A program made the position numbers and the translations under genes. Below are positions 21,189-28,896 of a stretch of 42,402 bases of DNA, in pieces. The stretch covers positions 1 to 42,402 of the forward strand of contig JACQGM010000364.1 in the NCBI GenBank assembly GCA_016199585.1, written 5' to 3'. Numbering within the stretch: position 1 is the first letter of the stretch; the number at the start of each line of letters is the position of its first letter. Source of the stretch: Armatimonadota bacterium (GTDB lineage: Bacteria > Armatimonadota > JAAZEB01). The notes beneath the pieces were generated by a model that was not told the origin of the DNA, made no database searches, and saw nothing but the letters and a program-made list of their open reading frames with translations.

Positions 21189-22187
21189 ATGAGTTGCCGA
21201 CGCATTCGGAGCAGGCTTTCGGAGTACATGGACGGGGAGTTGGCGGCGCTTGAGGGCGCTCGCGTGCGGGAGCACCTCGCGAGGTGCCCACGCTGCGCCG
21301 CCGAGGCGGAGGCGCTGCGTCGCGTCGCGGGCGTGGCCCGGCGCGTAGGGGCGTACGAGCCTCCCCCGAACCTGCGCGCGCGCCTGGATGCGGTCGTGTT
21401 GGCCGGCCTATCGCGGGAGCAGGTGCGTGTTCCCTGGTCCCAACGCTTCCAGGCCGTGCTCGCGCCGGCAGGCACTCTGGCCGCCGCCGCCGCGGCGCTC
21501 TTCCTCGCCGTGCGCCTCGCCGGCCCGGGATCCGTACCCCACCCCACCACTCCGGTGCCGGATGGCGCGTCGCGAAGCGTCGCGTCGGCGCCGCCGACCC
21601 GACCCGCCGATGCGCTCATGCCCGCCGCCGAAGGGATCCTGCCGCCCTCCGCAGGCGCTGATGTTGCCTCGCGACCGGCACCCACCCGTACCCTCGCGCA
21701 GGCCCCGGACACCTCTCCGGCAGCGCCGGGTGACCACTCCGCACCGCCGGTTGCTGACCTGCCGGACTCACCCGCGAAGGGAGCCGCGAGCGCGCAGCCT
21801 TCGCCCCTTCGCTCTCGGGAGCCACGGGCAGCGCCGTCCGGGAGGGTGCGCGTCGCGTCGGCGCGTCCCCGGCGGGGAGTCAGGGCCGCTCATCGCGCGC
21901 TGGAGCGCCGCCCCGAGCGCGCGGAGCCGGCGGAGCCGCTGGCGATGGCGGAGAGCCTGTACGCGAGCGGGCAGTACTCAGAGGCGGTGGGGGTGCTGAA
22001 CGCCGCGTTCGCCCAAGCGTGTGAGCGCTCGCCCGAGGAGATCCGCGAGCGGAACGCCCTGGCCGACGGCGCCATCCTGGAGTGCAGCCGCGCCCTCCGC
22101 CAGGACCCGGGCAACGCCAACGCGCGCAAGTTCCTGGGCGAGGCTTACTCCACGAAGCTCGCGCTCCTGCAGTCGCTCGCTGGCTAG
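21189..22187 (+). CDS. Anti-sigma factor (zf-HC2 N-terminal domain, one TM, Pro/Ala-rich linker, helical C-terminal domain)
   Basis: The N-terminus C..IRSRLSEYMDGEL....VREHLARCPRC carries the H-x3-C-x2-C signature. The TM is LAPAGTLAAAAAALFLAV. It lies in the same cluster as an ECF sigma factor. Confidence 0.85.
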   Translation: MSCRRIRSRLSEYMDGELAALEGARVREHLARCPRCAAEAEALRRVAGVARRVGAYEPPPNLRARLDAVVLAGLSREQVRVPWSQRFQAVLAPAGTLAAAAAALFLAVRLAGPGSVPHPTTPVPDGASRSVASAPPTRPADALMPAAEGILPPSAGADVASRPAPTRTLAQAPDTSPAAPGDHSAPPVADLPDSPAKGAASAQPSPLRSREPRAAPSGRVRVASARPRRGVRAAHRALERRPERAEPAEPLAMAESLYASGQYSEAVGVLNAAFAQACERSPEEIRERNALADGAILECSRALRQDPGNANARKFLGEAYSTKLALLQSLAG

Positions 22188-22212
22188 CGGTTAGCTCTTT
22201 CGGCGCTTCCTA

Positions 22213-22221
22213 TGGTATAAT
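22213..22221 (+). promoter_or_regulatory. Extended -10 promoter TGGTATAAT, placed so that the transcript would start at or next to the ATG (leaderless)
   Basis: TATAAT at 22216-22221 is preceded by TGg. Only 6 nt (AAACCG) separate it from the ATG at 22228, and there is no SD. Confidence 0.55.
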
Positions 22222-22227
22222 AAACCG

Positions 22228-23652
22228 ATGAGCGGATGGGGCGCGAGAGTTCTGGTGTTGGGGTGGACCTGCGCGCTCCTGCTCGCCGGGGCGAGCCGGG
22301 GGACCGCAGCCGAGGAGGTGGTCGGCCTCAGCGAGGTGACGAAGCACCGGGCGCCACTGGAGCCGGGCCAGCGCCTGGTGATCCGCCACTCCTACGGCGC
22401 CGTGCGCCTCAGCGGCGTGGACCAGCCGGAGGTGAACGTGTGCGCCCAGCGGCACGTGCGCGGCGTGAGCCTCCAGGCCGTGCGCTCGTACCTGAAGGCG
22501 CTGGCGACCAGCGTGCAGCCGATGGGCGACCGGGTGGAGATCGAGACGCGCCGGCCCGGAGGCGATCCGAGGTTCCTGACCCAGACCACGGTGGACCTGG
22601 ACATCACGCTGCCGCGCGGCACACCGGTGGAGCTGAACAGCAGCTTCGGCGACGTGGATGCCGAGGGGATCGGCGCGCTGCGCGCCACGGTTCCCTGGGG
22701 CGCCATCAGCGTGCGCAAGATCGCCGGCGACGTGAATCTGGAGGGAAAGGCCGGCAAGGTAACGGTGGCCGATGTGGCCGGCGACCTCACCGTCGCGCAC
22801 TCCATGCAGGACGTGGACGCGAGCCGGATCGGGGGGAGCGTGACGATCCGCAACCAGTTCGGGCAGATCCGCGTGCAGGGGGTCGGCGGGCGCGCGGTGC
22901 TCGCCAACCGCGGCGGCCCGATCGCGTTGATGAACGTCGGGGGCGGCGCTCAGATCACCTGCCAGACCGGCCAGGTTCAGGTGAGCCGGGTGCAGGGCGG
23001 CCTGACGGTGACGAACGCCGATGAGAGCGTCTCCATCTCGGAAGTGCAGGGCGTCACGGTCATCGAGGCGAGCAACGGCAACGTGATTGCCAGGCAGGTG
23101 TCCGGCGACCTGAAGATTGACAACCGTTACGGCGTGGTGGACATCGCCACGGTGACCGGGAACGTGACGGTCAAGCACGGCAACCAGCGGCTCCGGGTGA
23201 GGGGCGTGAAGGGATCAGCGGCGTTGAGCAACAGCCACGGCGCCATTGACGTGGATGGCGTCGCCGGGGACTGCAATATCCACAACCAGTTCGCCTCGGT
23301 GACCGTCCACCGCGTCTATGGCGCCCTGGAGGTGTTCAACGCCTGGGGACTGGTGCGGGCCGACCTGCCGGCGCCGCCCGCGCGGGGGGAGGCCGCGCCC
23401 TGGAAACTGAAGACGAACAACAGCAACATCGTGGTCGGCGTGCCGGAGAAGACCGGGTGCGCGCTGAGCGTAGAGGTGATCTCCGGCGCCATCGAGTCGC
23501 AGTTCCCGGTCGAAGTGCAGCGCGCCGGCAACGTGCAGTCGGCGCAGTGGGCCATCAACGGGGGTGGCCGCCCGGTGGACGTGGTGGTGGATCTCGGCAT
23601 GGCGCAGGTGCAGAAGCGTCCGGCCGCTGCGCCGCGTCCGGCCGGGAATTGA
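22228..23652 (+). CDS. DUF4097-family beta-strand repeat protein (LiaG/YvlB-like putative adhesin), secreted
   Basis: A signal peptide is followed by many ~20-aa repeats of the type G.V.V....G.v.....G.I.v (for example GDVNLEGKAGKVTVADVAGDLTV, GSVTIRNQFGQIRVQGVGG), characteristic of DUF4097. Confidence 0.85.
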   Translation: MSGWGARVLVLGWTCALLLAGASRGTAAEEVVGLSEVTKHRAPLEPGQRLVIRHSYGAVRLSGVDQPEVNVCAQRHVRGVSLQAVRSYLKALATSVQPMGDRVEIETRRPGGDPRFLTQTTVDLDITLPRGTPVELNSSFGDVDAEGIGALRATVPWGAISVRKIAGDVNLEGKAGKVTVADVAGDLTVAHSMQDVDASRIGGSVTIRNQFGQIRVQGVGGRAVLANRGGPIALMNVGGGAQITCQTGQVQVSRVQGGLTVTNADESVSISEVQGVTVIEASNGNVIARQVSGDLKIDNRYGVVDIATVTGNVTVKHGNQRLRVRGVKGSAALSNSHGAIDVDGVAGDCNIHNQFASVTVHRVYGALEVFNAWGLVRADLPAPPARGEAAPWKLKTNNSNIVVGVPEKTGCALSVEVISGAIESQFPVEVQRAGNVQSAQWAINGGGRPVDVVVDLGMAQVQKRPAAAPRPAGN

Positions 23653-23667
23653 GCAGGGAGACGCCCG

Positions 23668-24300
23668 ATGGACCTGGACGTCGCCGTGAATGAGGCCATG
23701 GTGGCAAGCACCGCCATCGAGCGGCGGTGCGCGCCCGACACGGCCATCCCGGACGAGGACCTCCGGCTCTCCTTCGGCGAGCTCACCGACAAGTACTACC
23801 GCCGCATCTACAACCTCATCTGCTACCAGGTGGGCGACCCGGACGAGGCGGCCGACCTGACCCAGGAGGTGTTCGTGAAGGCGTTCCGCGCCTTCCCCGC
23901 GTTCCGGGGCGAGGCGAGGGTCTCCACCTGGCTGTGGCGGATCGCCATCAACCTCTGCAAGAGCAGCTACCAAAAGCGCGCGCGCCAGGAACACCTCTTC
24001 CCCTTCTCCCTCGACGCCGAGGTCAGCACCAACGAGGGCGAGGTCAGCCGCGAGGCGCCGGACTGGTCGGTCTGCCCCGAGCATATCGCCGAGGTGAAGG
24101 AACTGCGGGTCCAGGTCCGGCGCGCCATCCGGTCGCTGCCGGATCTCTACCGCAACGCCATCGTCCTGTGCGACCTCGAGGGGTGCTCTTACCAGGAGAT
24201 CGCCGACATCACCCAGGCGAGCGTCCAGGCCGTGAAGTCGCGCATCCATCGCGGGCGGCAGATGCTGCGCCAGAAGCTCGAACGCTATGTGCGGGGGTAG
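23668..24300 (+). CDS. ECF (group IV) RNA polymerase sigma factor
   Basis: Region 2: YYRRIYNLICYQVGDPDEAADLTQEVFVKAFRAF...WLWRIAINLC. Region 4: LPDLYRNAIVLCDLEGCSYQEIADITQASVQAVKSRIHRGR. GGGAGA lies upstream of the ATG. Confidence 0.92.
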   Translation: MDLDVAVNEAMVASTAIERRCAPDTAIPDEDLRLSFGELTDKYYRRIYNLICYQVGDPDEAADLTQEVFVKAFRAFPAFRGEARVSTWLWRIAINLCKSSYQKRARQEHLFPFSLDAEVSTNEGEVSREAPDWSVCPEHIAEVKELRVQVRRAIRSLPDLYRNAIVLCDLEGCSYQEIADITQASVQAVKSRIHRGRQMLRQKLERYVRG

Positions 24301-24324: not shown

Positions 24325-24843
24325 ATGGCGTTCCGTGTGGTGCTGGAGAGGCTGTACCCGGACATGAAGGAGGCCACCGTCGGGCGGTGGCTGAAGGCGG
24401 AAGGTGAGGCGGTGGCCGAGGGGGATCCGATCGCCGAGCTCATCACCGACAAGGTGACATTCGCGTTGGAGTCACCCGGGGCGGGGCGGCTGCGGCGCAT
24501 CTACGCACGCGAGAAGAGCGTGCTGCCGATCGGGTGTACCCTGGCGGTGCTGGCGTCCCCGGAGGAGGCGCTCCCGGACATCGAAGCCGAGAACCGGGCG
24601 CTCATCGCGGCCCGGGAGGCGGAAGTCGCCCGCGGATTGCCGGCACCGCGTAGGGGCGGACCGCGTGTCCGCCCGGCGCTCGTGGCCGGCGTCGCCGGGC
24701 CGGGCCGGGCCGACGGGGTACGCGCCACTCCCTCGGCCCGGCGTCTGGCCCGTGAGCGCGGCATCGATTTGGCGCGGGTGCCCCGCCCCGAGCGCGGACC
24801 GATCACCGAGCGGGATGTAGAGGCGTTCATCAGTGGCAGGTAA
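24325..24843 (+). CDS. Lipoyl-domain + peripheral-subunit-binding-domain protein lacking an acyltransferase catalytic domain (E2-arm-like)
   Basis: The N-terminus has EATVGRWLKAEGEAVAEGDPIAELITDKVTFALESPGAGRL, with the TDK lipoyl-lysine motif. After an Ala/Pro linker comes ATPSARRLARERGIDLARV...GPITERDVEAF, a PSBD signature. The ORF ends there at 172 aa. Confidence 0.8.
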   Translation: MAFRVVLERLYPDMKEATVGRWLKAEGEAVAEGDPIAELITDKVTFALESPGAGRLRRIYAREKSVLPIGCTLAVLASPEEALPDIEAENRALIAAREAEVARGLPAPRRGGPRVRPALVAGVAGPGRADGVRATPSARRLARERGIDLARVPRPERGPITERDVEAFISGR

Positions 24844-26047
24844 TCAGCGGGTGGTCGTCACCGGCATCGGGGCCGTGTGCTGCCTCGGGCTCTCGGTGCC
24901 CGAGTTCTGGGAGGGGCTGTGCGCGGGCCGATCCGGCATCGGGCCGATCGCGCGTTTCGACACGACCGGCCTGCGCAATCCGTGCGCCGGTGAGATCAAA
25001 CATCCCGAGGCGCTCCGGCTTCCCGCGGGCGCCGACCCCGAGGACCTGGCCGTGCGCTTCGCCCTGGCGGCGGCGCGCGAAGCCGTCGCCGATGCCGCCC
25101 TCCCCCAAGGGGGCGACCCGGGCCGCCGGGGCATCGTCTTCTCCACCAACTTCGGCGGCGCGCACGCCTGGGAGCGCTTCGCCACCGCCTGGCACACCGA
25201 CCCGGCGCAGGTGCGCTCCGCGGATCTGCTGCGCTTCTCCTTCGAGGATGCCGTCGCCATCGCCGCCACCGCGCTGCGCTTCCTCGGCCCGCGCGGCACC
25301 CTCTCTCTCTCCTGTTCCTCGGGCGCTGCGTCCGTCGCCTGGGCGATGGATACCATCCGCGCCGGGCGCGCCGATGTCATGCTGGCCGGCGGGCACGACG
25401 CCCTCAGCCTCTCCTCTCTGGCCGGCCTGAGCGCCCTGCGCACCGTCACCGCCGAGCAGATCCGCCCCTTCGACAAGAACCGCAGCGGCACCCTCTTCGG
25501 CGAGGGCGCCGGGATGCTGGTGGTCGAGGCGCGCGACCACGCCGTCGCTCGCGGCGCCCGGATCTACGGGGAGGTGTGCGGCGCCGCCGTCAACAACAAC
25601 GCCTACCACGTCACCGCCCCGGACAAGCAGGGCGAAGGTCTGGCGGCCGCGCTGCGCGCCGCGCTGGGAGATGCCGAGGTGCCCCCGGAGGCGGTGGACT
25701 ACGTGAACGCCCATGCCACCGGCACGAAGTACCACGACGCGGTGGAGACGGCGGCGATCAAGGCGGTGCTGGGCGCGCGCGCCGGGGAGATCCCGGTCAG
25801 CTCCATCAAAGCGGCCACGGCACACCCGATGGCCGCCGCCGGCTCCCTGGAGGCGATCGCCAGCCTCCTCGCCCTGCGCGACGGCATCGTGCCGCCCACC
25901 TTGAACTACGAGACGCCCGACCCCGCGTGCGACCTGGACTGCGTGCCGAACATCGCCCGGCGAACATCGCTGCGGTGCGTGGTCTCCCTCTCCTCGGGCA
26001 TCGGCGGCAACAACGCCGCCCTCGTGCTGCGAAAGGACGAGCCGTGA
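24833..26047 (+). CDS. Beta-ketoacyl synthase (KAS I/II, FabF-like) with an intact Cys-His-His triad
   Basis: The GTG start overlaps the upstream gene by 11 nt. RVVVTGIGAV...; active-site LSCSSGAAS (Cys); NAYHVTAP and VNAHATGT (two His); C-terminal GGNNAALVL. Confidence 0.9.
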   Translation: MAGNQRVVVTGIGAVCCLGLSVPEFWEGLCAGRSGIGPIARFDTTGLRNPCAGEIKHPEALRLPAGADPEDLAVRFALAAAREAVADAALPQGGDPGRRGIVFSTNFGGAHAWERFATAWHTDPAQVRSADLLRFSFEDAVAIAATALRFLGPRGTLSLSCSSGAASVAWAMDTIRAGRADVMLAGGHDALSLSSLAGLSALRTVTAEQIRPFDKNRSGTLFGEGAGMLVVEARDHAVARGARIYGEVCGAAVNNNAYHVTAPDKQGEGLAAALRAALGDAEVPPEAVDYVNAHATGTKYHDAVETAAIKAVLGARAGEIPVSSIKAATAHPMAAAGSLEAIASLLALRDGIVPPTLNYETPDPACDLDCVPNIARRTSLRCVVSLSSGIGGNNAALVLRKDEP

Positions 26048-27219
26048 GCGTGGTCATCACCGGCACCGGCGCTCTCTCGGCCATCGGCTGCGGCCCGGCG
26101 TTCGCCTCCGCCCTGGCGGGATGCACGCCGGGCATCGCCGAAGTCACCGGCTTCGATCCAGGCGATGCGCCCTCGGTGCTCGCCGCCGAGGTGCCCCACT
26201 TCTCCATCGAGGAGTATTTGACGAGCGCGAAGACCTACCTGGATCGCTCCTCGGCCCTTGCTCTGGCGGCGGGCGCCCTGGCGCTGCGCGACGCGGGCGT
26301 CATAGTGGCTCCCGGGGAAGGGCAGCGCGCCGGTCTTTCCTTCGGCACCGCCTACGGCTGCCTGGAGACGATGGGCGGCTTCTGGGCGGGCGTGCAGGAG
26401 AAAGGCGCCCGCCTGGCCAGCTCGCTCCTCTTCACCCACTCCTACGCCAACACGCCCGTGAGCCTGGCCTCCATCGAGTTCAACCTCGCCGGGCCGCACG
26501 GCTGCTTCTGCGCGGGCGCCGCCTCCGGGGGGCACGCCCTGGCCGACGCCGTGGCGCAGGTGGCCGCCGGCCGCGCGGACGTGATGCTCGCCGGCGGGTG
26601 CGAGGCGCTCTCGCCCATCCTCTACGGGGGACTATCCGGCGCCGGCGTTCTCTCGCCGGGGGATGACGGCCCGGAGGGCCTGCGCCCCTTCGCGGCGTCC
26701 CGCAACGGCACCGTGCTGGGCGAAGGCGCCGCCATGCTCGTCGTCGAACCAGAAGGCGTGGCCGCGCGACGCGGAGTCCGGGTGCGCGCCCGTGTGCTCG
26801 GCGTCGGCCCGGGGGGCGGTGGGGCCGTCGGCGCCGAAGCGGCGATGCGCGCCGCCCTGGCGGATGCCGGCGGGGGACCCGGGGAGGTGGATGCCGTGTT
26901 CGCGGCGGCGAATGGCTCCCCCGAGGGGGATGCCGCCGAGGCGGGGGCGCTGGAGAGCGTCTTCGGGGGACGGTGGATCCCGGTGGTCGCCCTGAAGGCG
27001 ATGGTCGGGGAGACGCTGGGGGCTTCCGGGGCCCTGGCGGCGGCCGCCGCCGTACACGCCCTGGAGGAGGGCCTCTTGCCCGCCGCTCCCGGGATGGAAG
27101 CTCCCGAGTTCGCCCTCGACCTCGTGCGCGCCCCCCGGCGCGCTTCTCTGCGGCGCGTGCTCGTGAACAGCTTCGATGCGCGCGGCGGGTGCGTCAGCCT
27201 CTTGCTCGGGGCGGCGTGA
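26044..27219 (+). CDS. Ketosynthase-like partner lacking the catalytic triad (chain-length-factor-like)
   Basis: GTGA overlap with the KS stop (26044-26047). An ungapped alignment to the upstream KS over GP...GRADVMLAGG places Ala where the nucleophilic Cys should be (FCAGAASGG versus LSCSSGAAS). The His positions read ...GGGAVG... and AAANGSP. Confidence 0.85.
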   Translation: MSVVITGTGALSAIGCGPAFASALAGCTPGIAEVTGFDPGDAPSVLAAEVPHFSIEEYLTSAKTYLDRSSALALAAGALALRDAGVIVAPGEGQRAGLSFGTAYGCLETMGGFWAGVQEKGARLASSLLFTHSYANTPVSLASIEFNLAGPHGCFCAGAASGGHALADAVAQVAAGRADVMLAGGCEALSPILYGGLSGAGVLSPGDDGPEGLRPFAASRNGTVLGEGAAMLVVEPEGVAARRGVRVRARVLGVGPGGGGAVGAEAAMRAALADAGGGPGEVDAVFAAANGSPEGDAAEAGALESVFGGRWIPVVALKAMVGETLGASGALAAAAAVHALEEGLLPAAPGMEAPEFALDLVRAPRRASLRRVLVNSFDARGGCVSLLLGAA

Positions 27220-27221
27220 AC

Positions 27222-27287
27222 GCCCGGCGCGGGGCGGAACCCGCGCCCTACGGGATGCCCGGCGCGGGGCCGAACCCGCGCCCTACG
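27222..27287. repeat. Two tandem copies (35-bp period) of a REP-like GC hairpin, GCCCGGCGCGGGGC(G/C)GAACCCGCGCCCTACG
   Basis: Copies at 27222-27252 and 27257-27287. Each contains GGCGCGGG / CCCGCGCC arms (27226-33 / 27240-47 and 27261-68 / 27275-82) followed by CTACG. They sit right after the KS-like gene stop and may act as a terminator. Confidence 0.8.
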
Positions 27288-27307
27288 ATTTCGGCGAAGA
27301 GGAGAGC

Positions 27308-28339
27308 ATGGACCAGGAGGTCAGAGTAGAGCACGGGGCGCTGGTCGCCGCGATCCGGGAGGTGCTGGAGGGCGCGGGCGTGCCGGCGCCGGTGAGCCGT
27401 GTGGAGGCGGAGGTGACCGCCGAGGCTGACCTGCTCGGCGTGCCGTCGCACGGCGTGCGCATGGTGCCGGCGCTGGTGAAGGCGATCCGCGAGGGACGGG
27501 CGACCCCCGACCCGCAAGTGCGGATCGTGCGCGAGCGGGGCGCCACCTGTGTCCTGGACTGCGACAACGGGCCGGGGCGCTACGTCTCCGTCCTGGGGAT
27601 GCGGCACGCGGTCGGGCGCGCGCGGGAGGCGGGCGTCGGGGTGTGTCTCGCCCGGCGGACGACGCACTGGGGCCGGGCGCACGCCTACGCCTGGCGGGCG
27701 GCGCAGGCCGGGATGATCGGGGTGTGTGCCACGAACGCCATCCCGAACATGCTCGCGTTCGGGTCCTCCGGCCGCCTGGTGGGAAACAACCCCTTGGCGA
27801 TCGCGGTGCCCGCCGGGGAAGGGCGCGACCCGGTGGTGCTGGACATGGCGATGAGCCAGGCCGCCCTGGGCAAGGTCGGCACCTACCTGCGCGAGGGGAA
27901 GAAGGCGCCCCCCGGGTGGGGTCTGGATGCCGATGGACGGCCGACCGACGACCCGGCGACGATCCTGGCCAGCCGGAAGATCCTCCCCTTCGGCGGCCAC
28001 AAGGGCGCCGGCCTCGGCGTGATGATCGAGCTGCTCACCGGCGCGCTCTCGGGCGGCCTCCTCGCCCACGAGATGGCCCGGAGCGACGCCAGCGGCCTCG
28101 ACCGTGAGGCGACCAAGCTCTTCCTGGCGCTCGATCCGGCGGCCTTCCTGGACCCGGAGCACTTCTGCCGCCGGGTGCGCGACTCGCTCACCTTCCTCCA
28201 GACCGCCGAGCCGGGGCTCACGGTTCTCTATCCCGGCGAGCGGGGCTGGCAGGTCAGAGACCGCTATCTCGCCGAGGGGATCCCAATCCCGACCGACATC
28301 ATCGCCGAGCTGCGAGCGTTGGGGGCTTCGCCGGGGTAG
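27308..28339 (+). CDS. Ldh_2-family (malate / L-lactate / ureidoglycolate-type) NAD(P)H-dependent oxidoreductase
   Basis: Start at the ATG at 27308, with GAGGAGAG upstream. The translation has LLGVPSHGV.R......I, ...NNPLAIAVP..., ...DMAMSQAALGKV and ...PFGGHKGAGLG..IELL.G.LSG, typical of the type-2 malate/lactate dehydrogenase family. Confidence 0.85.
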   Translation: MDQEVRVEHGALVAAIREVLEGAGVPAPVSRVEAEVTAEADLLGVPSHGVRMVPALVKAIREGRATPDPQVRIVRERGATCVLDCDNGPGRYVSVLGMRHAVGRAREAGVGVCLARRTTHWGRAHAYAWRAAQAGMIGVCATNAIPNMLAFGSSGRLVGNNPLAIAVPAGEGRDPVVLDMAMSQAALGKVGTYLREGKKAPPGWGLDADGRPTDDPATILASRKILPFGGHKGAGLGVMIELLTGALSGGLLAHEMARSDASGLDREATKLFLALDPAAFLDPEHFCRRVRDSLTFLQTAEPGLTVLYPGERGWQVRDRYLAEGIPIPTDIIAELRALGASPG

Positions 28340-28365
28340 GACCGGGATCGCTGTGGGGGTAGATC

Positions 28366-28896
28366 ATGAACACTCTGGTAGTTTGCGCGGCGGCGTCGGG
28401 AACGACGTTCGCCGCCGAGGCCGAGGAAGCGCCCCGCCTGGAAGTCGGCGACTGCGCGCCCGACTTCCGGGCGAGCGCCTCGGATGGCAAGGAGTACACT
28501 CTGGCGCAGTTCCGCGGCCGGTCGGCCGTCGTTATCGCCTGGTATCCCCGGGCAATGACCGGCGGCTGAACGCGGGAGATGAACTCTCTCCGTGATGAGA
28601 TGAGTTTCCTCTCGCAGTTCAACGTGCAGGTGTTCGGCGCCAGCACCGACCCGGTGGAAGCCAACCGGGAGTTCGCGGAACGCCAGGGCTACCCGTTCCC
28701 CCTCCTCTCCGACCCCGACGGGAGGGTGGCGAAGGCTTTCGGGGTTCTCAACGCCAAGGGCACGGCCGCCCAGCGCTGGACCTTCGTCATTGACGACCAG
28801 GGCATCATCCGCCACATTGACCGCAAGGTGAAGACAGACACCCACGGCAAGGACCTGGCCGAGGCGCTGGGCGCGCTCGGGATGCCGAAGCGGTAG
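28366..28896 (+). CDS. AhpE/Prx-like peroxiredoxin with an in-frame TGA (28567-28569) at the peroxidatic-Cys position; candidate selenoprotein (otherwise a nonsense pseudogene)
   Basis: ORFs 28366..28569 and 28579..28896 are in the same frame, separated only by TGA + ACG CGG GAG. The joined product reads ...VVIAWYPRAMTGG[TGA]TREMNSLRDEMSFL...VFGASTDP...PFPLLSDPDG.VAKAFGV. This parallels the Prx active-site block FPLAFTG(V/I)C..EL..LRD. There is an N-terminal signal-like peptide. Confidence 0.6.
28573..28592 (+). promoter_or_regulatory. Candidate SECIS-like hairpin 3 nt downstream of the in-frame TGA
   Basis: CGGGAGA-UGAAC-UCUC(U)CCG forms 7 bp with one bulged U and a 5-nt loop with G at the second position. 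It can be extended by G-U and C-G pairs (28571-28594). Position and size are compatible with bacterial SECIS elements, but this was not evaluated with a model. Confidence 0.3.

Follow-up and report, generated by a model that had tools for sequence, protein, structure and literature searches.

A lipoyl/subunit-binding protein encoded with a FabF-derived ketosynthase pair: candidate core of an acyl-chain-building module in Armatimonadota and other phyla

Enzymes of the E1 class acylate lipoyl domains and dock on the peripheral-subunit-binding domain (PSBD). In the QncN/QncL/QncM (quinocarcin) and NapB/NapD systems, a two-carbon unit reportedly passes from an E1-like thiamine enzyme, by way of a lipoyl arm, to an ACP. 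Pairs of condensing enzymes in which an active ketosynthase (KS) is encoded side by side with an inactive partner occur in type II PKS KS/CLF systems, including highly reducing ones (Iga11/Iga12, 6KXD; ApeO/ApeC), and in AmcF/AmcG. The last of these, from the cispentacin pathway, performs a single C2 extension of a 2-oxo-acid-derived starter, 2-oxoglutaryl-ACP (PMC10698177). The anammox pair amxFabF2/amxFabFmut was shown experimentally to act as an obligate heterodimer and to initiate chains by making acetyl- and acetoacetyl-ACP (Granatino et al., bioRxiv 10.64898/2026.05.19.726425); that paper mentions neither a lipoyl protein nor pyruvate dehydrogenase. Matching residue numbering indicates that chains B and C of PDB entries 9S5H and 9S5I are probably amxFabF2 and amxFabFmut.

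The locus described here joins a lipoyl-arm protein, LIP, to a ketosynthase, KSA, and its paralogue, KSB. It lies in a window, the whole stretch of DNA analysed, of 42,402 nucleotides from an Armatimonadota bacterium. The features are as follows.

23668 to 24300, plus strand: ECF sigma-70 gene, a context gene ending 24 nt 5' of LIP
24325 to 24843, plus strand: LIP, 172 aa; lipoyl domain (Lys43), helix, flexible linker and PSBD
24833 to 26047, plus strand: KSA, 404 aa; FabF-like ketosynthase with intact Cys161, His294, Lys326 and His331
26044 to 27219, plus strand: KSB, 391 aa; catalytically dead FabF-fold paralogue, presumed partner of KSA
27225 to 27287, no strand assigned: tandem 28-nt GC-rich palindromic element, two copies, between KSB and the Ldh_2 gene
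27305 to 28339, 3' of the trio: Ldh_2 gene, from the Pfam scan

The KSA GTG start overlaps the LIP TAA stop by 11 nt, and KSA and KSB share a GTGA overlap. Both junctions, already read by the initial annotation, were confirmed in the sequence, as was its account of the flanks: the ECF gene upstream and, downstream, the Ldh_2 gene followed by a putative seleno-peroxiredoxin gene, in which an in-frame TGA occupies the peroxidatic position, 1.1 kb from the trio. The closest relatives (L006, L013, L014) share the ECF gene as a neighbour of LIP, and an ECF gene also stands upstream of LIP at one more distant locus (L028). Neither a sigma-70-type promoter nor a terminator was found in the gap between the ECF gene and LIP, and the two genes are possibly co-transcribed. 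The palindromic element, present in two copies where none is expected, may mark the end of the transcription unit; its fold energy is not significantly lower than that of shuffled sequence (z = -1.57).

LIP matches the Pfam models Biotin_lipoyl (PF00364, 1.5e-10) and E3_binding (PF02817, 8.7e-9), and the lysine of its ITDKVT motif, Lys43, falls on the lipoyl-lysine of human PDH E2 in a PDB alignment (6ct0, 6e-24). Its PSBD aligns with the Geobacillus stearothermophilus chains 1w85_I, solved with E1, and 1ebd_C, solved with E3. The Pfam scan returned no match to the 2-oxoacid_dh catalytic domain (PF00198), and the chain stops at residue 172, after the PSBD. Pfam and PDB alignments thus agree with the original description of a TDK-lysine lipoyl domain plus PSBD lacking the E2 core. 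In NCBIfam the matches are confined to the N-terminal portions of E2 and AcoC proteins, with E2 models scoring 60-74 bits against cut-offs of 307-722 bits. Because PF00198 is unmatched and every NCBIfam E2 score falls far below its cut-off, LIP was rejected as a 2-oxo-acid dehydrogenase E2, the acyltransferase core being missing. It was likewise rejected as the acetoin dehydrogenase component AcoC, whose N-terminus is its best NCBIfam match (NF011457, profile positions 5-126 of 372, 74 bits, cut-off 307): LIP has no alpha/beta-hydrolase-fold acyltransferase domain. The AF2 model (pLDDT 88.9) predicts a barrel at residues 1-80, where pLDDT exceeds 95, a helix at 86-104, a disordered stretch at 105-130 and the PSBD at 132-171, a length and layout like those of the recombinant lipoyl-plus-PSBD "didomain" used as an E1 substrate.

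LIP belongs to a distinct family of about 165 residues found in Armatimonadota, Abditibacteriota, Lentisphaerota, Planctomycetota and WS1, comprising roughly at least 75 clusters at 50% identity and annotated merely as "E3 binding domain-containing protein". Lys43 is invariant in all 24 family members aligned, as are T41, R133, P136, R139 and R140. The family is conserved, its functional residues do not vary, and LIP is not a decaying fragment. One LIP::AcpS fusion protein is known (P0496).

KSA matches the N- and C-terminal ketoacyl-synt Pfam domains, and comparison with Bacillus subtilis FabF (4ls6) upheld the earlier description of a FabF-like KS with an intact triad: Cys161, His294, Lys326 and His331 are all present, and triad and lysine are retained in 120 of 120 KSA family clusters. 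Among solved structures it scores highest with B. subtilis FabF (292 bits), followed by 9s5h_B (287 bits). The phenylalanine of the GFGG gate, found in 18 of 19 FabFs, is isoleucine in 114 of 120 KSA family members; family-wide, the gate changes relative to elongating FabFs are Phe to Ile, Asp to Asn and Phe to Thr.

KSB also matches both KS Pfam domains, and its AF2 model (pLDDT 94.7) retrieves FabF structures in Foldseek at TM 0.94-0.95. The active site is dead. The initial annotation had placed Ala at the nucleophile position with both histidines lost, and two alignments concur: against Thermus thermophilus FabF 1j3n (phmmer, 4.7e-49), KSB has Ala at Cys, Ala at the first His and Glu at the second, and a 121-sequence MAFFT alignment gives Ala/Ala/Glu again, or Ala/Ala/Lys/Glu at the Cys/His/Lys/His columns. 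Across the KSB family these four columns read x-[AS]-K-[ED], the nucleophile column being unconserved; among the 120 best KSB matches, 37 have an altered triad, and all 37 lack the Cys. Neither protein was accepted as FabF proper, since both fall below the cut-off of 493.75 bits of the equivalog model TIGR03150 (KSA 349 bits, KSB 212 bits) and KSA is without the gate Phe. Nor was KSB accepted as an aromatic type II PKS KS-beta, having Ala instead of Gln and scoring higher with 1j3n (171 bits) than with 1tqy_B (111 bits).

The locus had been likened to the KS/chain-length-factor architecture of type II PKS and aryl-polyene pathways. An active KS beside a dead one is indeed what is found, but membership of those clades did not hold: sequence comparison makes the pair FabF-derived and places it outside the aromatic type II PKS and aryl-polyene KS/CLF clades, with amxFabF2/amxFabFmut as its closest characterised relative. 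Because of the GTGA translational coupling and the anammox precedent, KSA and KSB presumably form a heterodimer. An independent origin of the dead subunit is possible, since KSB scores lower with 9s5h_C (135 bits) than with ordinary FabFs (171 bits).

A gene-neighbourhood survey showed that the arrangement is conserved. The survey took in 37 GTDB species representatives that encode LIP as a stand-alone protein and in which the sequence continues for 5 kb or more downstream of it. In 15 of them a KSA+KSB pair follows within 5 kb on the same strand; a FabG-like SDR is nearby in 20 and AcpS in 17, and in 24 at least one of KSA, a FabG-like reductase and AcpS lies downstream. The linkage of LIP to the KS/dead-KS pair is seen in five phyla with order and strand unchanged. 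The fullest order, LIP-AcpS-FabG-esterase-KSA-KSB-E1alpha-E1beta-GT2-ACP-hydrolases, is seen, with AcpS, FabG and the S9 esterase variably present and hyd2 preceding hyd1 at the end, in Armatimonadota (L011, L019, L092) and Victivallaceae (L100). The cluster is found also in Lentisphaerae (L102), Planctomycetota (L093), WS1 (L029, L094) and a bin labelled Verrucomicrobiota (L026). FabG and AcpS assignments are at NCBIfam cut-offs or within 2 bits of them. A PDH/acetoin-type E1alpha directly follows the KS pair in at least 11 loci, with E1beta next in seven; these subunits are closest to PDH/acetoin-type E1 (345 and 379 bits). All ten E1-linked clusters whose contigs extend far enough upstream start with LIP, and none of the ten contains an E2 core or an E3. 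An ACP gene is present in five clusters (L011, L019, L026, L092, L100), fused to GT2 in L092; the six-gene clusters (L093, L102) have no hydrolase, and no cluster has a dehydratase or enoyl reductase. The cultured Abditibacterium utsteinense LMG 29911 carries LIP-acpS-fabG-esterase-KSA-KSB. Some 40% of LIP genes lack a KS within 10 kb, and there are KSA/KSB pairs with no accompanying LIP. Because KS-linked LIPs are scattered over the entire LIP family in a neighbour-joining tree, the adjacency looks ancestral.

The window itself is sparser. The earlier report that no ACP, ketoreductase, dehydratase or acyltransferase gene lies nearby was borne out by Pfam searches of the GC3-selected ORFs, which also yielded no E1 or E3 and which covered the 42 kb apart from about 15.8-17.0 kb and 33.1-36.2 kb, where no ORF is GC3-selected. 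Queries for ACP, E1alpha, E1beta and E2 core against all window ORFs of at least 50 aa (phmmer) found none, and an unfiltered hmmsearch with a cluster-ACP profile found no ACP; for E3, the Pfam scans were the search used. E1, ACP and E3 are absent also from the available 20 kb of the 100-kb contig of a 67%-identical relative. The suggestion of an ACP-free pathway fails all the same: ACP, AcpS and a FabG-like ketoreductase sit inside the same cluster in relatives, and by this comparison the window trio is a reduced form, or remnant, of the larger conserved cluster. The companion idea, of a lipoyl arm that works with the condensing enzyme or links it to an E1/E3-like component, gains partial support from the recurrent linkage in five phyla and from the E1 loci.

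We tentatively propose, with confidence a little short of even, a conserved acyl-chain-building module with the trio at its core, in which E1 loads LIP and KSA/KSB condense the lipoyl-borne starter. A full module would comprise a PDH/acetoin-type E1alpha-beta, LIP, the KSA/KSB heterodimer, a FabG-like ketoreductase and AcpS, frequently joined by a GT2 glycosyltransferase, an ACP and two alpha/beta-hydrolases. E1, docked on the LIP binding domain, would decarboxylate a 2-oxo acid, or cleave an acetoin-like ketol, and reductively acylate the arm at lipoyl-Lys43. Because the cluster encodes no E2 core, the acyl thioester would then move from the arm to KSA Cys161, in a pocket shaped by dead KSB, for condensation with malonyl-ACP; the FabG-like enzyme would reduce the 3-oxoacyl-ACP, and housekeeping E3, using the same binding domain, would re-oxidise the arm. 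In the window's lineage only LIP, KSA and KSB would remain together, behind the ECF sigma gene, the rest being encoded elsewhere or housekeeping. The stronger form of this proposal, in which the lipoyl-lysine arm and not CoA or ACP is the acyl donor to the KS, and E1alpha-beta, LIP and KSA-KSB make up a 2-oxo acid-primed PDH-FAS hybrid with the KS pair in place of the E2 core, is doubtful. Armatimonadota, Abditibacteriota and PVC-group bacteria may use such a hybrid as the native way to start a lipid or acylated glycan. The initial annotation did not recognise the operon as a described pathway, and the literature searched likewise contained no description of the LIP-KS link or module and no precedent for lipoyl-to-ketosynthase transfer; we know of none.

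A lipoyl-borne starter is not strictly needed, because the anammox homologue self-primes by decarboxylating malonyl-ACP, making acetyl- and acetoacetyl-ACP from malonyl-ACP alone. KSA/KSB might do the same, or use acyl-ACP, while LIP passes its acyl group to ACP or CoA through an alpha/beta-hydrolase-fold transferase, or serves another step, so that LIP and the KS never touch. The best NCBIfam match of LIP, the AcoC N-terminus, fits this account, as do the S9 esterase and the hyd1 and hyd2 hydrolases recurrent in clusters; the catalytic part of AcoC is an alpha/beta-hydrolase domain, and by analogy with that C-terminal domain the hydrolases of the larger clusters could be the real acyl-transferases. 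We nevertheless think it rather unlikely: the six-gene clusters and the window trio lack a hydrolase, hyd1 and hyd2 have no AcoC-model match at E<=0.001, and LIP and KSA are translationally coupled in the window. Mitochondrial FAS, whose chief role is to feed lipoylation, offers another model, in which KSA/KSB, FabG and AcpS make octanoyl-ACP mainly to lipoylate LIP, and LIP serves E1/E3 only, in the metabolism of 2-oxo acids. The commonest LIP neighbours are of FAS type, and the LIP::AcpS fusion points the same way, but the recurrent neighbour families (mostly alternate-frame artefacts) include no candidate LipA, LipB, LipM or LplA, and the want of a dehydratase and enoyl reductase, the missing E2 core beside E1 and the GT2-ACP-hydrolase extension leave this explanation improbable.

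The downstream peroxiredoxin raises the thought that LIP might act as a redox relay through its dithiol, or tether E3, for instance as a reductant of that enzyme, with the KS genes hitch-hiking in the operon; DlaT and AhpD serve AhpC in this way in the lipoyl-dependent peroxidase system of Mycobacterium tuberculosis. Yet peroxiredoxin and Ldh_2 adjoin LIP in no relative (L006 has URO-D there), and the conserved linkage is to KS, FabG, AcpS and E1, so that we regard a redox role as quite improbable. Least credible of all is the view that an orphan E2 fragment and a functionally unrelated KS pair came to lie together by chance; some genomes do carry LIP or the pair alone, but the neighbourhood survey contradicts it, with order and strand constant across five phyla, an ancestral-looking linkage and a LIP family whose functional residues do not vary.

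Should the hand-off from LIP to KSA prove real, a lipoyl swinging arm would for the first time be seen to supply a Claisen-condensing enzyme. Oxidative decarboxylation of 2-oxo acids would then be coupled to the assembly of carbon chains with no CoA thioester in between, and a thiolase-fold heterodimer would be shown able to replace an E2 core. The LIP family would gain a function, and a conserved pathway of lipid or glycan acylation would be defined in phyla that have been little studied. The question is directly testable because the cultured A. utsteinense carries the cluster. On a conservative reading, the newly recognised class of FabF/dead-FabF heterodimers reaches well beyond anammox bacteria.

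With the anammox pair, the locus shares a FabF-derived active KS and an adjacent FabF-fold paralogue whose Cys-His-His triad is destroyed; the match of KSA to 9s5h_B (E 2e-84) is on a par with that to B. subtilis FabF. The dead gene, however, lies upstream in anammox bacteria and downstream in the window trio, the anammox dead subunit carries Val/Thr in place of Cys where KSB has Ala, amxFabF2 retains the gate Phe394 that is Ile in KSA, and the anammox cluster has amxACP, amxFabZ and radical-SAM genes. With the Amc system, KSA reaches 236 bits on the AmcF model (cut-off 325), and the L011 cluster ACP finds its best match in AmcB at 64 bits (cut-off 80). KSB matches the act CLF 1tqy_B less well than FabF (7.6e-31 versus 4.7e-49) and lacks the Gln of aromatic CLFs; in KS/CLF systems, moreover, it is an adenylating enzyme or a decarboxylation step that loads the starter, rather than E1 acting with a lipoyl arm. 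In relation to the PDH and AcoABC complexes, LIP is equivalent to the lipoyl and PSBD portion of a PDH-type E2, and the nearest non-cluster relatives reside in E1a-E1b-E2 or AcoABC-like operons; LIP differs in having neither the acyltransferase core (PF00198) nor the AcoC hydrolase domain, and its cluster in encoding no E3 and in placing KS/dead-KS and FAS-type genes between LIP and E1. The lipoyl protein of the Qnc and Nap systems is said to retain the E2 catalytic domain and so to pass its unit to ACP; those systems have no KS heterodimer as presumed acceptor, whereas the LIP cluster has one.

All three genes proposed for this locus in the initial annotation are real. The window has a G+C content of about 70%, and a codon-position filter shows a single clear plus-strand coding series at 17.7-28.9 kb. 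The three genes (the trio) encode LIP, a lipoyl plus peripheral-subunit-binding (PSBD) protein with no E2 core, followed by KSA, an intact FabF-like ketosynthase (KS), and KSB, its dead paralog.

Genes of the trio and the block upstream
21189-24300, + strand: ECF block, consisting of a zf-HC2 protein, a 474-aa protein with no Pfam match, and an ECF sigma factor
24325-24843, + strand: LIP, 172 aa, supported by Pfam
24833-26047, + strand: KSA, 404 aa, supported by Pfam
26044-27219, + strand: KSB, 391 aa, both KS domains found by Pfam

The junctions are as first described: the LIP stop codon, TAA at 24841-24843, overlaps a KSA reading frame that starts with GTG at 24833, the KSA TGA and KSB GTG share the bases GTGA, and the ECF sigma gene ends 24 nt upstream of LIP. 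The zf-HC2 domain is typical of anti-sigma factors. The order zf-HC2 protein, 474-aa protein, ECF sigma factor recurs in three loci from other genomes, L006-L008, which hints that the trio may be under envelope-stress control. A promoter and terminator scan of 21.0-28.6 kb gave nothing exceeding background, and Rfam identified no RNA family at 20-32 kb. Between KSB and the Ldh_2 gene, a 28-nt GC-rich palindromic element, CGGCGCGGGGCNGAACCCGCGCCCTACG, occurs in two tandem copies (27225-27252 and 27260-27287) and nowhere else in the window; the fold of the tandem palindromes is not significantly more stable than that of shuffled sequence.

Pfam, phmmer and hmmsearch agreed with the initial annotation in finding no acyl carrier protein (ACP), ketoreductase, dehydratase or acyltransferase; they found no E1 or E3 within the window either. 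The Pfam searches, which alone covered E3, used ORFs selected by GC3, with no such ORF at approximately 15.8-17.0 kb and 33.1-36.2 kb; phmmer queries for ACP, E1 and the E2 core were run against all window ORFs of at least 50 aa, and the hmmsearch with a cluster-ACP profile was unfiltered.

LIP contains two Pfam domains and no others, Biotin_lipoyl (residues 14-76) and E3_binding (132-166). Its NCBIfam matches, all far under cut-offs, are to the N-terminal 100-180 residues of E2 and AcoC models only, apart from one to the N-terminal lipoyl extension of a pyruvate dehydrogenase (PDH) E1beta; lacking a catalytic domain, LIP qualifies as neither an E2 nor an AcoC protein. Among solved structures LIP is closest to human PDH E2, in its inner lipoyl domain and PSBD (6ct0, 6e-24), on whose lipoyl-lysine Lys43 of LIP (ITDKVT) aligns; the C-terminal 40 residues also match the Geobacillus stearothermophilus PSBD solved with E1 (1w85) and with E3 (1ebd). 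An AlphaFold2 model (pLDDT 88.9) shows a beta-barrel at 1-80, a helix at 86-104, a disordered linker at 105-130, and a two-helix PSBD. Identification as BCCP or GcvH was rejected on the basis of these matches and of the motif, TDK rather than MKM.

No database record is identical to LIP by exact-sequence lookup, but a database search returned over 200 relatives; the roughly 60 best are all 160-175 aa in length, share the two domains, and come mostly from Armatimonadota. Invariant residues include T41, K43, R133, P136, R139 and R140. In an exhaustive profile search, about 75 of the top 150 matches were short LIP-type representatives (50% clustering). Sequence conservation thus marks LIP as a protein family, not a fragment. 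In one profile-search match, the 319-aa protein P0496, the lipoyl and E3_binding domains are fused to a holo-ACP synthase, AcpS; this may be a genuine Rosetta-stone fusion, or else the result of read-through across LIP and acpS genes overlapping by 4 nt. It is the only LIP fusion that turned up, with no LIP-KS fusion among the top 120 KSA matches or the top 150 LIP-profile matches.

KSA retains Cys161, His294, Lys326 and His331, as do all members of its large, well-conserved family (at least 120 clusters, 50-81% identity, about 400 aa). Three columns distinguish the family from the genuine FabFs that the search also returned: the GFGG-loop gate Phe (residue 390, window approximately 26000-26002) is replaced by Ile in 114 of 120 family members, Asp by Asn at residue 256 (approximately 25598-25600), and Phe by Thr at residue 220 (approximately 25490-25492). 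Such substitutions may be adaptations to an acyl donor of an unusual kind. Two of the three columns we take, as a lead only, to be those of F400 and D265 of Escherichia coli FabF, reportedly described as gating residues by Mindrebo and colleagues (Mindrebo et al. 2020).

KSB is indeed dead, as proposed, with Ala, Ala and Glu at the Cys, His and His columns in both a Thermus thermophilus FabF alignment (4.7e-49) and an alignment of 121 sequences. Its model, of high confidence (pLDDT 94.7), overlays FabF structures with TM 0.94-0.95, which marks KSB as a folded pseudo-enzyme rather than a decaying gene. KSB relatives show the pattern x-[A/S]-K-[E/D], with the nucleophile column unconserved, and are often shortened to 220-330 aa. 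The initial annotation likened the pair to KS/chain-length-factor (CLF) heterodimers; the sequence-level features of that architecture are present, but the pair does not belong to the aromatic CLF clade. Both proteins score under FabF cut-offs. In sequence and in fold they resemble FabF more closely than they do act KS/CLF or Iga11/12. A cluster of a different type, in Myxococcota JAKLKC010000032 (L002), has two consecutive KS/dead-KS-like pairs (KSA-KSB-KSA-KSB), no LIP, and distant KSB relatives (37% identity).

The LIP alignment, searched against one genome per GTDB species, yielded 80 loci, whose ORFs were labeled by phmmer with cluster proteins; Chloroflexota matches, ordinary full-length E2 genes adjoining E1alpha and E1beta, served as controls. 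Stand-alone LIP loci revealed a modular, collinear, same-strand cluster that can include a FabG-like reductase (SDR), PDH/acetoin-type E1 subunits, glycosyltransferases (GT2, GT4) and hydrolases (hyd1, hyd2).

Gene orders in selected loci
L092, Armatimonadetes CG2_30_59_28, among the fullest forms: LIP-AcpS-FabG-like SDR-S9 esterase-KSA-KSB-E1alpha-E1beta-GT2::ACP-hyd2
L100, Victivallaceae, among the fullest forms: LIP-SDR-...-KSA-KSB-E1alpha-E1beta-GT2-ACP-hyd2-...-hyd1-GT4
Abditibacteria, including cultured A. utsteinense (L069): plsY(-) der(-) LIP-acpS-SDR-S9-KSA-KSB

The cluster is also found in L011, L019 and L026, and in shorter form, reaching only through E1alpha, in L029, L045 and L080; matches listed from an E1alpha-centered scan added Planctomycetota L093, Lentisphaerae L102 and WS1 L094. 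The small gene 3' of LIP passes the AcpS equivalog model, and the SDR is FabG by score (296 bits, cut-off 297.75, with subfamily NF009466 passed). The hydrolases resemble the exosortase-associated hydr1 and hydr2 families and the ACP is nearest to cispentacin AmcB, all under cut-offs.

In the 37 species whose stand-alone LIP has 5 kb or more of sequence downstream, KSA and KSB follow on the same strand within 5 kb in 15, a FabG-like SDR is present in 20, AcpS in 17, and at least one of KSA, SDR or AcpS in 24. Among the matches listed, LIP opens all ten E1-linked clusters whose contigs reach far enough, and none of the E1-linked clusters contains an E2 core or E3 gene. On a neighbor-joining tree of LIP sequences, KS-linked members are spread across all major branches, and the LIPs with no KS beside them (LIP-M48-DUF1015, or LIP alone) fall in derived clades, so that the linkage looks ancestral and later dispersed. 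On one Abditibacteriaceae contig, for example, KSA now lies 14 kb downstream of LIP.

Several variants were encountered. L092 18345-19553 encodes a GT2 glycosyltransferase that ends in a fused PP-binding (ACP) domain; other clusters have one gene for GT2 and a neighboring one for ACP. Cluster-type E1alpha genes with no adjoining E1beta occur in L029, L045, L080, L094 and L095 (928-1875, Abditibacterium sp. JAYVFL010000411); that of L095 is an orphan, L080 has an E1beta about 6 kb upstream of LIP, and L029 and L045 have BlaI/BlaR-like, cytidylyltransferase and LytR-CpsA-Psr genes after E1alpha. One Armatimonadota clade (L003, L004, L021-L024, L028) has no KS genes after LIP; in most of these, LIP precedes a membrane M48 peptidase, a small zinc-ribbon membrane protein and DUF1015, and L003 and L004 have HSP20 and Lon upstream. 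Small recurrent ORFs near LIP, considered as hidden ACPs, proved to be mostly alternate-frame artifacts, and one was a zinc-ribbon membrane protein.

The closest relatives of the window locus (L001/L013, L006-8 and L014, 66-81% identical) share the local order zf-HC2 protein, unknown protein, ECF sigma, LIP, KSA, KSB, while the gene 3' of KSB differs, URO-D in L006 and Ldh_2 in the window. This synteny marks the trio as the conserved unit, with Ldh_2 and the peroxiredoxin outside it; both were rejected as pathway members because neither is conserved beside LIP. Physical linkage to E1, FabG, AcpS and ACP appears to have been lost in this clade. The peroxiredoxin/BCP-like gene (28363-28896, + strand) is interrupted in frame by a TGA (28567-28569) precisely where the peroxidatic Cys is expected (WYPRAMTGG*TRE), and its C-terminal part matches AhpC-TSA (9e-20); it is a candidate selenocysteine peroxiredoxin, with no SECIS-type Rfam match at the gathering threshold.

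In established biochemistry, E1alpha-beta docks on a PSBD and reductively acylates a lipoyl domain, and a free lipoyl-PSBD didomain, as in Perham-type constructs, is a competent E1 substrate. The conserved core comprises six genes, LIP, FabG-like SDR, KSA, KSB, E1alpha and E1beta, and of the enzymes they encode KSA alone has a thiol able to take over an acyl group from a thioester; by elimination, a lipoyl-to-KSA model is the most economical. Domains, the dead site and synteny are observed; the entire acyl flow is inferred: E1 would convert a 2-oxo acid or ketol to acyl-S-lipoyl-LIP, the acyl group would pass to Cys161 of KSA, KSA would condense it with malonyl-ACP to 3-oxoacyl-ACP, and the FabG-like enzyme would reduce this to 3-hydroxyacyl-ACP. 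The clusters include neither a dehydratase nor an enoyl reductase, so a short 3-hydroxyacyl unit may be the dedicated product, used later by the GT2, GT4 and hydrolase genes for an acylated glycan or a glycolipid. If instead housekeeping FabZ and FabI extend the chain, the module would be a route of initiation independent of FabH. In Abditibacteria the plsY, der, acpS and fabG surroundings favor a primary-lipid role; the GT2-ACP-hydrolase extension favors a specialized one.

We hold the overall route from E1 through LIP to KSA/KSB tentatively, as somewhat short of probable, and direct lipoyl-to-KS transfer, which would be a new biochemical hand-off, has a smaller but real chance. Of the rival readings, a hydrolase-mediated hand-off combined with KS self-priming is unlikely, an mtFAS-like route supplying lipoylation is improbable, and service of LIP as a redox relay is more improbable still. 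Mere chance adjacency, set beside the recurrent neighborhoods, is scarcely credible.

Among known systems, QncN/L/M use an E1 and a lipoyl-E2 to feed an ACP. The KS pair finds a functional analogy in AmcF/AmcG, which carry out one round of extension on a 2-oxo-acid-derived starter (PMC10698177). The third-best solved match of KSA, 9s5h_B (2e-84), has numbering (Cys165, His298, His335, Asn389/390, Phe394) that matches Brocadia fulgida amxFabF2 of the anammox pair amxFabF2/amxFabFmut (bioRxiv 10.64898/2026.05.19.726425). That FabF and dead FabF form an obligate heterodimer converting malonyl-ACP to acetyl- and acetoacetyl-ACP, which amounts to chain initiation, and the report mentions neither a lipoyl protein nor pyruvate dehydrogenase (bioRxiv 10.64898/2026.05.19.726425). 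The anammox heterodimer is the closest characterized system. None of the three brings together a KS pair and a lipoyl arm that lacks the catalytic core, and the literature searched (lipoyl-ketosynthase, core-less lipoyl domains, inactive-KS heterodimers) yielded no description of such a link.
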